Shown here in pieces: positions 25,701-28,700 of a stretch of 64,000 nucleotides of DNA. This DNA comes from Escherichia coli (lineage in GTDB: Bacteria; Pseudomonadota; Gammaproteobacteria; Enterobacterales; Enterobacteriaceae). Location: the NCBI RefSeq assembly GCF_013315695.1, contig NZ_CP054353.1; one strand, given 5' to 3'. A program made the position numbers. Within the stretch, counting starts at the first letter, position 1; every line of letters starts with the position of its first letter.

Positions 25701-28700
25701 ACAAAATACCGGCGGCGACCGGAATACCAATGCTGTTGTAGATAAACGCACCGAGCAGGTTCTGCTTCATATTGCGCAGCGTTGCGCGGGAAATCGCGAG
25801 CGCATCCGCAACGCCCATCAGGCTATGGCGCATCAGGGTAATCGCCGCGGTTTCAATGGCAACATCACTGCCGCCACCCATCGCAATGCCGACATCCGCC
25901 TGGGCCAGCGCTGGCGCGTCGTTAATGCCGTCGCCCACCATTGCCACCTGACGTCCTTCACTTTGCAGGCGTTTAATCGCTTCGGCTTTACCGTCCGGCA
26001 GCACCCCGGCGATCACCTCATCAATCCCGGCTTCTTTGGCGATCGCATTGGCGGTGGTTGGGTTATCCCCGGTCAACATCACCAGACGATATCCCGCTTT
26101 ATGCAGGCGTTGCAGCGCCGCCACGCTATCACTACGCAATGGATCGCGTACAGCCAGCAGGGCTACTGCTTTCCCGTCAACCGCCAGCAGCACAGGCGTT
26201 GCCCCTTGCGATGCCTGAGCTGAAATATCTGCCTCAATCGCTTTAGTATCAACTTGCTGGTCATTTAACAGCGCCTGATTGCCCAGCAATAACGCATGAC
26301 CTTCAGCTTCACCGCTCACGCCCAGCCCGCGCAATGTGCGGAAACCGTTGACCTGCGACAGCTGCATATCGCCTGCTTTATCGAGGATCGCTCGTGCCAG
26401 CGGATGGCTGGAACCTTGCTCCAGTGCCGCCGCCAGACGCAATGCCTGCGCTTCATCAACATCAGCAAACGTTTTCACTGCGACAACCTGCGGTTTACCT
26501 TCGGTCAGCGTCCCGGTTTTATCGAACACTACGGTATCGAGCGTACTGGCGCGTTGCAGCGCGTCGGCGTCCCGTACCAGCACGCCAAACTCAGCCGCCC
26601 GCCCGACGCCGGAAATAATCGACATCGGCGTCGCCAGCCCCAGCGCACACGGACAGGCAATAATCAGCACCGTGGTGGCAATCACCAGGGTATAGACAAT
26701 CTGCGGTGCCGGACCAAAGAAATACCAGATTGCCGCACTGACAAGCGCAATAACCACTACTACCGGCACAAATACGGCTGAGATTTTATCCGCCAGTTGG
26801 CCGATTTCAGGCTTGCTGCTCTGGGCCTGGCGCACCATGCGAATGATCCGTGACAGCGTAGTATGGCTGCCGACCGCACTGGCACGAAACAGCACACTGC
26901 CGTCCTGTACCACTGTCCCGGCATGGACGCTATCGCCTTCGCCTTTTTGCTGCGGGATAGGTTCGCCCGTCAGCATCGCTTCATCCAGCCACGCTTCGCC
27001 TTGAGTAATCTCACCATCTACCGGCACACGGTCGCCGGTCGTCAGGCGCAGTAACATACCTGGCTGAACATCTGCCAGCGGCACGTTTTTTTCACCTTCG
27101 TCGGTGACCAGGCGCGCCGTCGGTGGGGTTAAATCGAGTAATTTCTCCAGCGCCTTAGAAGAACGCTGACGCGCGCGCGCTTCCAGCATATGGCCGAGAT
27201 TGATCAGACCGATAATCATCGCGCTGGCTTCGTAATAAAGATGTCGCGCTTCCATCGGGAACCACTGCGGCCACAGGTTGACGCTCATCGAATAGAGCCA
27301 CGCCACGCCAGTACCCAGCGCCACCAGCGTATCCATCGTCGCTGCACCGTTCAGCAGGCTTTTCCATGCGCTGCGGTAAAAATGCCCGCCGGCGAAAACC
27401 ATTACCGCCAGGGTTATCAGGCCGATAACCAACCACAGGCTGCGGTTGTCGGCGGTGACCATCATGTTATCGCCGATCATCCCCCAGACCATCACCGGGA
27501 TACCCACCGCCAGTGCGACAATCGCCTGCCAGCGGAAGCGCTTCATCGTAGCGACGGCGGTTTCTTGCTGGCGCTCGCGGCGTTTAGCGTCATCTTCAAT
27601 CGCTTCCGCGCCGTAGCCCGCTTTTTCCACCGCCTGCACTAAATCTTGTGGGGAGGCACTGCCCATCACCAGCGCAGTACGCTCCGCCAGGTTTACCCGT
27701 GCCTGAGTGACGCCCGGTACGCTTTGCAGCGCATTTTGTACGCGGGTGACACAGCTGGCGCAGCTCATGCCGCTCAGCAGCAACTGCTGGCTGTCATCGT
27801 CATCGGCGGTCGCTGCCGGAAGCGCCTCAGAAACCGCTGTCAGTGCTTCCGACGGGATTGATGACTCCGCCAGCGGTTTAGCCTTTGGGTGGCTTACAGA
27901 TGCGTCATAACCCGCTTGTTTGATGGTTTCGATCAGCTGTTCTGCACTGGCAGTCCCGGTAACGTGCGCTTCAGTGACAGACACATCCGCCTGCTCAACA
28001 TCCGGGCGCTGTTCGAGACTTTCTTTCACGCGTTTAACGCAGTGACCGCAGGACAGGCCGTCCAGGGTCAGGTCGATAGTTTGTGACATAAAACACTCCT
28101 TTTAAGACAGTTTTGACTGGCTGTGATAAAGGTTAAACCTTCCAGCAAGGGGAAGGTCAAGAAATTAATAAACCAGGCGGGTAAAAGTCCGTAAAGATTA
28201 AAAAATCGGCTCGATTTGCATCAGGATTAGACATTTATCTCTTTGTTTTCCTGTAGTTAAGTTGCGGGTGCTAAGTTAAATCAGGATGTCTGAAAATCGG
28301 CACCGGGGTGAGGAATTACCTCCCGCATCTATAAAAAGGAGTTAACAAAAGATGTTAGATGCAAACAAATTACAGCAGGCAGTGGATCAGGCTTACACCC
28401 AATTTCACTCACTTAACGGCGGACAAAATGCCGATTACATTCCCTTTCTGGCGAATGTACCTGGTCAACTGGCGGCAGTGGCTATCGTGACCAGCGATGG
28501 CAACGTCTATAGTGCGGGTGACTGTGATTACCGCTTTGCGCTGGAATCCATCTCGAAAGTCTGTACGTTAGCCCTTGCGTTAGAAGATGTCGGCCCGCAG
28601 GCGGTACAGGACAAAATTGGCGCTGACCCGACCGGATTGCCCTTTAATTCAGTTATCGCCTTAGAGTTGCATGGCGGCAAACCGCTGTCGCCACTGGTAA

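Follow-up and report, generated by a model that had tools for sequence, protein, structure and literature searches.

A 64,000-nucleotide (nt) stretch of Escherichia coli contig NZ_CP054353.1 (assembly GCF_013315695.1; hereafter the window) carries copA, the gene for the copper pump CopA, and within copA a heptamer, C_CCA_AAG, which we regard as almost certainly the slip site of the known wild-type −1 programmed ribosomal frameshift (PRF) cassette of E. coli copA. Minus-strand positions 27889..27877 read 5′ to 3′ CCCAAAGGCTAAA, in the register C_CCA_AAG_GCT_AAA (plus strand 27877..27889, TTTAGCCTTTGGG). A script placed the heptamer at copA gene positions 201-207 with a frame offset of 2, in the X_XXY_YYZ register and on codons P68-K69. 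After a −1 slip, the reading becomes CCC AAA GGC TAA, and translation gives a predicted −1 product, MSQ...SHPKG*, of 70 amino acids (aa). A sequence-only reading of this DNA had assigned C CCA AAG to codons 68-69 and had read GGC TAA after it in the −1 frame; the placement was exact on re-inspection, the strand (minus) being the one detail it had omitted. Both features whose absence it had named as refuting, the heptamer and the immediate −1 stop, were found to be present. Its description of the site as the known signal for the small protein CopA(Z) is borne out by sequence identity with K-12, by the joined coding sequence (CDS) of MG1655 and by the literature. The cassette in the window is already known, and nothing in it is new or strain-specific.

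Identity of the cassette with K-12

An alignment of the window with K-12 MG1655 that starts at the promoter and runs on beyond the slip site (461 nt) shows differences in five places; they are an additional A just before the Shine-Dalgarno sequence, silent substitutions in codons L25 and R28, and one that replaces an amino acid, I38V. The rest of the alignment, which starts at codon 39, takes in the pseudoknot described below and ends more than 150 nt beyond the heptamer, is 100% identical. The window thereby shares with K-12 copA the same gene, codons, heptamer, −1 GGC TAA, spacer and pseudoknot sequence, and departs from it outside the cassette only (I38V, the two synonymous changes and the extra A in the untranslated region (UTR)). 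In the nascent chain, residues 39-69 are the same as in K-12, and residue 38 is V, not I. Moreover, the MG1655 RefSeq joined copA CDS (YP_009518752.1, "soluble Cu(+) chaperone") covers 212 nt from the start codon, corresponding to 69 codons plus GGC TAA minus one re-read base, and maps to window positions 27878..28089.

The same picture emerged from a wider set of genomes. A copy of copA was found in 5,422 of 5,426 complete E. coli genomes, and of the 5,422 with a match, 5,341 had at least 99% identity over an 86-nt stretch holding the cassette; the whole 2.6-kb copA region reached at least 99% identity in 56 genomes only and was usually 95-99% identical. Five human isolates, E. coli MS 21-1 among them, match the window at 100% identity over the copA region. 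Annotation of MS 21-1 by the Prokaryotic Genome Annotation Pipeline (PGAP) gives the full-length copA only, the second product being absent.

The −1 frameshift in K-12 copA that produces CopA(Z) was reportedly described by Meydan et al. 2017 (Mol Cell 65:207) and by Drees et al. 2017 (Mol Microbiol 106:635), the latter under a title that also points to a short-transcript route. Ribosome profiling flagged copA, with efficient −1 frameshifting leading to a 70-aa putative chaperone, and E. coli ribosomes slip very readily on C_CCA_AAG (PMC5009743). The copA pseudoknot is an efficient stimulator of −1 PRF (PMC6182138), and copA frameshifting combines the slippery sequence, the pseudoknot and a stimulatory nascent chain (PMC7558416). 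Cells are protected from excess copper by CopA(Z) (PMC6771820). Profiling data and the separate work of Drees et al. 2017 give bacterial copA frameshifting good, independent support; the paper that reported the bacterial finding also made a claim concerning human ATP7B, which was not upheld (PMC9548414).

Conservation of the slip site across Enterobacterales

We compared the copA 5′ regions of 12 other Enterobacterales with that of the window, giving 13 taxa. The regions from Citrobacter, Enterobacter and Photorhabdus came from a scan of genome contigs with the P-type ATPase pattern MVGDGIND, which is general enough to have filled the scan; they were the three Enterobacterales among the 80 loci listed, the other 77 lying outside the slip-site analysis. 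Those from Klebsiella, Atlantibacter, Cronobacter, two Erwinia, Pantoea, Proteus and two further loci (L089 and L090) were obtained by a protein search followed by retrieval of the contig DNA. The query was the N-terminal 211 aa of CopA, and the matches were short or partial; ten were used to obtain DNA, and the tenth contig (L092), being the same as the window across the cassette, was counted as no extra taxon.

In all 13 taxa, CCCAAA(G/A) occupies an unchanged register, and the −1 frame runs from it through a single sense codon into TAA or TGA. The nucleotide pattern is xxC CCA AAR NCT RAN, with the fourfold-degenerate A of Pro68 and the T of codon 70 fixed in 13/13, while the zero-frame residues 70-71 vary (A/P/T/S and K/N/D/E, respectively), yielding PKAK, PKAN, PKPD, PKTE, PKPE and PKSE. 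Bases held fixed despite changing amino acids are, on this comparison, the signature of selection on the recoding signal and not on the protein.

Furthermore, the slip site in the comparison set always lies directly before the last N-terminal HMA domain. E. coli-like species have a predicted one-domain chaperone of 70-74 aa. The site follows two HMA domains in Photorhabdus (L006, codon 138; predicted product 140 aa) and in L089 (codon 137; 139 aa), and three in Proteus vulgaris (L088, codon 204; 206 aa). These three loci use C_CCA_AAA, not C_CCA_AAG, and retain the pseudoknot with compensatory changes. We tentatively suggest, with slightly less than even confidence, that frameshifting would release one-, two- or three-HMA chaperones depending on the domain number of the pump.

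A predicted pseudoknot downstream of the heptamer

An H-type pseudoknot starting 6 nt 3′ of the heptamer is predicted in the mRNA, with a stem 1 (S1) of 6 bp and a stem 2 (S2) of 9 bp (Table 1). The S1 duplex has an energy of −9.2 kcal/mol and the S2 duplex one of −14.4 kcal/mol, and the connecting stretches measure 17, 5 and 10 nt. A version with S1 extended to 9 bp (AAACCGCUG/CAGCGGUUU) was rejected, the added pairs not being kept in other genera.

In an alignment of 12 taxa, 96.1% of the pseudoknot pair cells were paired (S1, 100%; S2, 93.5%), and compensatory double-sided changes were seen at five pairs, two in S1 and three in S2. Those in S1 replace C-G by A-U in Erwinia rhapontici and C-G by U-A in Pantoea; examples in S2 replace G-C by C-G or U-A. 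The observed values were matched in 0-1 of 500 shuffles, and a control in which the 3′ partners were slid by 1-3 columns left just 19-52% of cells paired. L090 (P0075) was left out of the pair count, its shorter loop being misaligned; inspection by eye shows S1 (CCGCUG/CAGCGG) retained there and another complementary pair, AGGCC/GGCCU, at the position of S2. Compensatory changes such as those counted in the proposed stems are hard to explain otherwise. The anatomy of the cassette, its identity with K-12, its conservation and the covariation of the pseudoknot are direct observations on the DNA compared here.

Nothing in the sequence argues against identifying the site as the known cassette, but the evidence has limits. 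The nascent-chain residue 38 (I38V) and one UTR base differ from K-12. A nested minimum free energy (MFE) fold of the 83 nt after the heptamer was not unusual against shuffles (z = −0.73); this score says little about the pseudoknot, because the MFE tool cannot represent pseudoknots. The nested fold does recover S2, and explicit stems with comparative pair counts were used in place of nested folding. Shared ancestry among the 12 aligned sequences inflates the shuffle statistics, and the stems lie within coding sequence, where conservation may partly reflect protein constraint; the structure was also derived from one of the aligned sequences. Finally, the predicted stems may not coincide base for base with those of the published copA pseudoknot.

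No Rfam family covers the copA element: a gathering-threshold scan of the whole window returned only DnaX and sroB, and a permissive scan of 27500-28300 gave chance-level matches only (E ≥ 3.5).

Table 1 Coordinates of the copA cassette and of the copper genes in the window
Feature	Position	Strand	Basis or detail
Slippery heptamer C_CCA_AAG	27883..27889	−	copA codons 68-69 and last base of codon 67
−1 frame GGC TAA, single sense codon then CopA(Z) stop	27878..27883	−	Translation
CopA(Z) predicted coding span, 212 nt	27878..28089	−	Codons 1-69 in frame 0, −1 slip at base 27883, GGC TAA
Spacer GCUAAA, 6 nt, heptamer to pseudoknot	27877..27882	−	Heptamer and stem 1 coordinates
Predicted pseudoknot stem 1, 5′ arm CCGCUG	27871..27876	−	Pairs with 27834..27839
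Predicted pseudoknot stem 1, 3′ arm CAGCGG	27834..27839	−	Pairs with 27871..27876
Predicted pseudoknot stem 2, 5′ arm GUCGGAAGC	27845..27853	−	Pairs with 27815..27823
Predicted pseudoknot stem 2, 3′ arm GCUUCCGGC	27815..27823	−	Pairs with 27845..27853
copA, Cu(I)-exporting P1B-type ATPase, 834 aa, zero-frame product	25585..28089	−	Open reading frame
copA Shine-Dalgarno AAGGAG	28096..28101	−	Sequence
copA promoter: −35 TTGACC, dyad ACCTTCC-N7-GGAAGGT (CueR box), −10 TAACCT, long MerR-type spacer	28130..28160	−	Sequence
cueR, Cu(I)-responsive MerR-type activator of copA, 135 aa, intact	54065..54472	+	Open reading frame

Predicted products and proposed mechanism

The copA open reading frame (ORF) is the only long one across the slip site and translates to the E. 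coli copper pump CopA, with 10 aa substitutions relative to K-12. Its expected motifs are all present (CGHC14, CASC110, CPC479, DKTGT523, TGE374 and GDGIND719), and the full-length ORF with CPC, DKTGT, TGE and GDGxND places it among the P1B-1 Cu(I)-ATPases. The 70-aa product matches the Pfam HMA family (PF00403) over residues 8-62 with 52.1 bits (cut-off 24.8; E = 8.4e-14) and carries the copper motif GLSCGHC, of the form GxxCxxC, at residues 11-17. As predicted from its sequence, this product is the first CopA metal-binding domain in the form of a free CopZ-like protein.

For the strain of the window, we infer slipping itself, its efficiency, the role of the nascent chain and the chaperone function from the literature. 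In the mechanism we propose, ribosomes would pause on C_CCA_AAG, CCA being bound by tRNA-Pro and AAG by tRNA-Lys; meanwhile the pseudoknot 6 nt downstream would oppose unwinding, and the nascent CopA chain, as the literature indicates, would also contribute. A fraction of the ribosomes would then slip one base back, their tRNAs re-pairing with CCC and AAA; these ribosomes would add a single glycine (GGC), terminate at TAA and release the 70-aa CopA(Z), a presumed CopZ-like Cu(I) chaperone. The remaining ribosomes would make the 834-aa pump.

Alternative explanations

It is exceedingly improbable that the heptamer and its −1 stop form a functionless coincidence. Such a reading could appeal to the frequency of CCCAAAG in the window, which does not go beyond chance (the two strands together hold 4 copies, and shuffles gave 8.1 ± 2.8), and to a second in-frame X_XXY_YYZ heptamer in copA, A_AAA_AAC at codon 334, which is without sign of function. 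However, the site is identical to one that has been characterised experimentally; heptamer, register and stop are invariant in the 13 taxa, whose CopA N-termini reach down to ~50% identity with E. coli; and the downstream pseudoknot covaries. Published experiments and the conservation data already contradict a chance origin. What makes the site significant is the frame register, the immediate −1 stop, its place where the first metal-binding domain ends, and the conservation, not the heptamer alone.

The small chaperone might instead come mainly from a short, prematurely ended copA transcript, on which heptamer and stop would only end translation. The title of Drees et al. 2017 points that way, but the same paper names frameshifting in its mechanism. 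No U-run was seen in the sequence after the stems, a search that did not include a dedicated terminator scan, and a register and an immediate −1 stop kept in 13 taxa are what selection for slipping, not truncation, predicts. The study by Drees et al. has moreover been called an independent confirmation of the frameshifting (PMC9548414). We consider the short transcript improbable as the main source and treat it as a route complementary to frameshifting, not as its replacement. Still less probable, in our judgement, is an intact cassette whose efficiency, or the expression of copA, has been altered by strain differences. The differences from K-12 are real (I38V, the extra A, the IS110-family element and a cueR gene ~23 kb further off), and a stimulatory nascent chain has been reported (PMC7558416), but heptamer, spacer, pseudoknot and codons 39-69 are the same as in K-12, and several sequenced E. 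coli isolates carry this allele with 100% identity. The copA reading frame ends before the IS110-family element is reached, and the distance of cueR from copA should not matter, because CueR acts in trans.

Copper regulation and surrounding insertions

The sequence-only reading had gone on to conclude that the copper-handling backbone is unaltered despite surrounding insertions. That conclusion cannot be drawn from a 13-nt site; what holds is that copA, its promoter and cueR are intact within the window, to which our check was confined, cueO and cusCFBA lying outside it. The promoter stretch with its dyad, which we take to be the CueR-dependent PcopA promoter, is identical to that of K-12. Relative to K-12, there is an extra A at 28102 (−), directly upstream of the copA Shine-Dalgarno sequence (CTTAAAAGGAG versus CTTAAAGGAG). 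The cueR gene has 93.6% nt identity to K-12 cueR and is annotated as cueR in MS 21-1. It lies ~26 kb from copA because an island has been inserted.

The insertions mentioned in the same reading are real and comprise an IS110-family element, two IS1 copies and a type I secretion/adhesin island; compared with the K-12 neighbourhood, the window has the IS110-family element replacing ybaQ and the island between ybaT and cueR. The island (~30600-54068, ~23 kb) encodes a TolC-family protein, a giant adhesin, a type I secretion ATPase and an HlyD adaptor, and the end of the HlyD ORF (54068) overlaps the start of cueR (54065). The adhesin is BapA/SiiE-like (SiiEA-like) and internally repetitive, with ~75% self-matches; in MS 21-1 it is annotated as a pseudogene with an internal stop. 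Directly past the copA 3′ end, window positions 23843..25588 replace 727 nt that hold ybaQ in K-12. This segment contains an IS110-family transposase ORF (24076..25101, +; Pfam DEDD_Tnp_IS110 and Transposase_20), 484 nt from the copA stop codon.

One IS1 copy (~18924..19690; InsA 91 aa, InsB′ 167 aa) lies inside the fosmidomycin efflux gene fsr, which it splits, and is absent from K-12 and MS 21-1; the BLAST segments on either side overlap by 10 nt, which suggests that the target site was duplicated. A second copy with the same InsA and InsB′ ORFs (~54818..55584), also absent from MS 21-1, is located 345 nt 3′ of cueR, within a small hypothetical gene that belongs to the flanking islet. IS1 has a −1 frameshift of its own between insA and insB′. 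The small RNA gene sroB/ChiX (22894-22977, +; Rfam RF00368, 81 bits) is located between ybaK and ybaP, as in K-12.

Relation to other recoding elements and copper chaperones

The window holds another −1 frameshift element, that of dnaX, at 8423-8487 (+; Rfam RF00382, 96.8 bits). The two belong to the same type of event, in which the ribosome moves back one base on an X_XXY_YYG heptamer whose closing A_AAG is decoded by the sole tRNA-Lys of E. coli. RNA structure downstream promotes the shift, and a stop reached almost at once gives a shorter functional protein, in dnaX gamma as opposed to tau. The dnaX signal consists of A_AAA_AAG, an upstream Shine-Dalgarno-like stimulator and a stem-loop, whereas the copA cassette has a pseudoknot; the dnaX element has an Rfam model and the copA element has none. 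On the protein side, CopA(Z) resembles the separate CopZ/Atx1-type chaperones, such as CopZ of Enterococcus hirae and Bacillus subtilis, which are likewise single HMA domains of ~70 aa with CxxC that pass Cu(I) to a CopA-type pump. Those CopZ proteins have a gene of their own, typically in the same operon, whereas CopA(Z) is the first domain of the pump, released by recoding.

Implications

PGAP-type annotation lists copA without its second product, and Rfam has no model for the element, so the site is expected to appear unannotated in genome scans. A copA slip site met in such a scan is an ordinary known feature and not a discovery; for this window, the cassette matters only as a point of annotation, with its position before the last HMA domain as a mildly interesting by-product. 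For the organism, the sequence confirms that the strain keeps its copper pump, together with the predicted built-in chaperone, despite the mobile-element insertions nearby.

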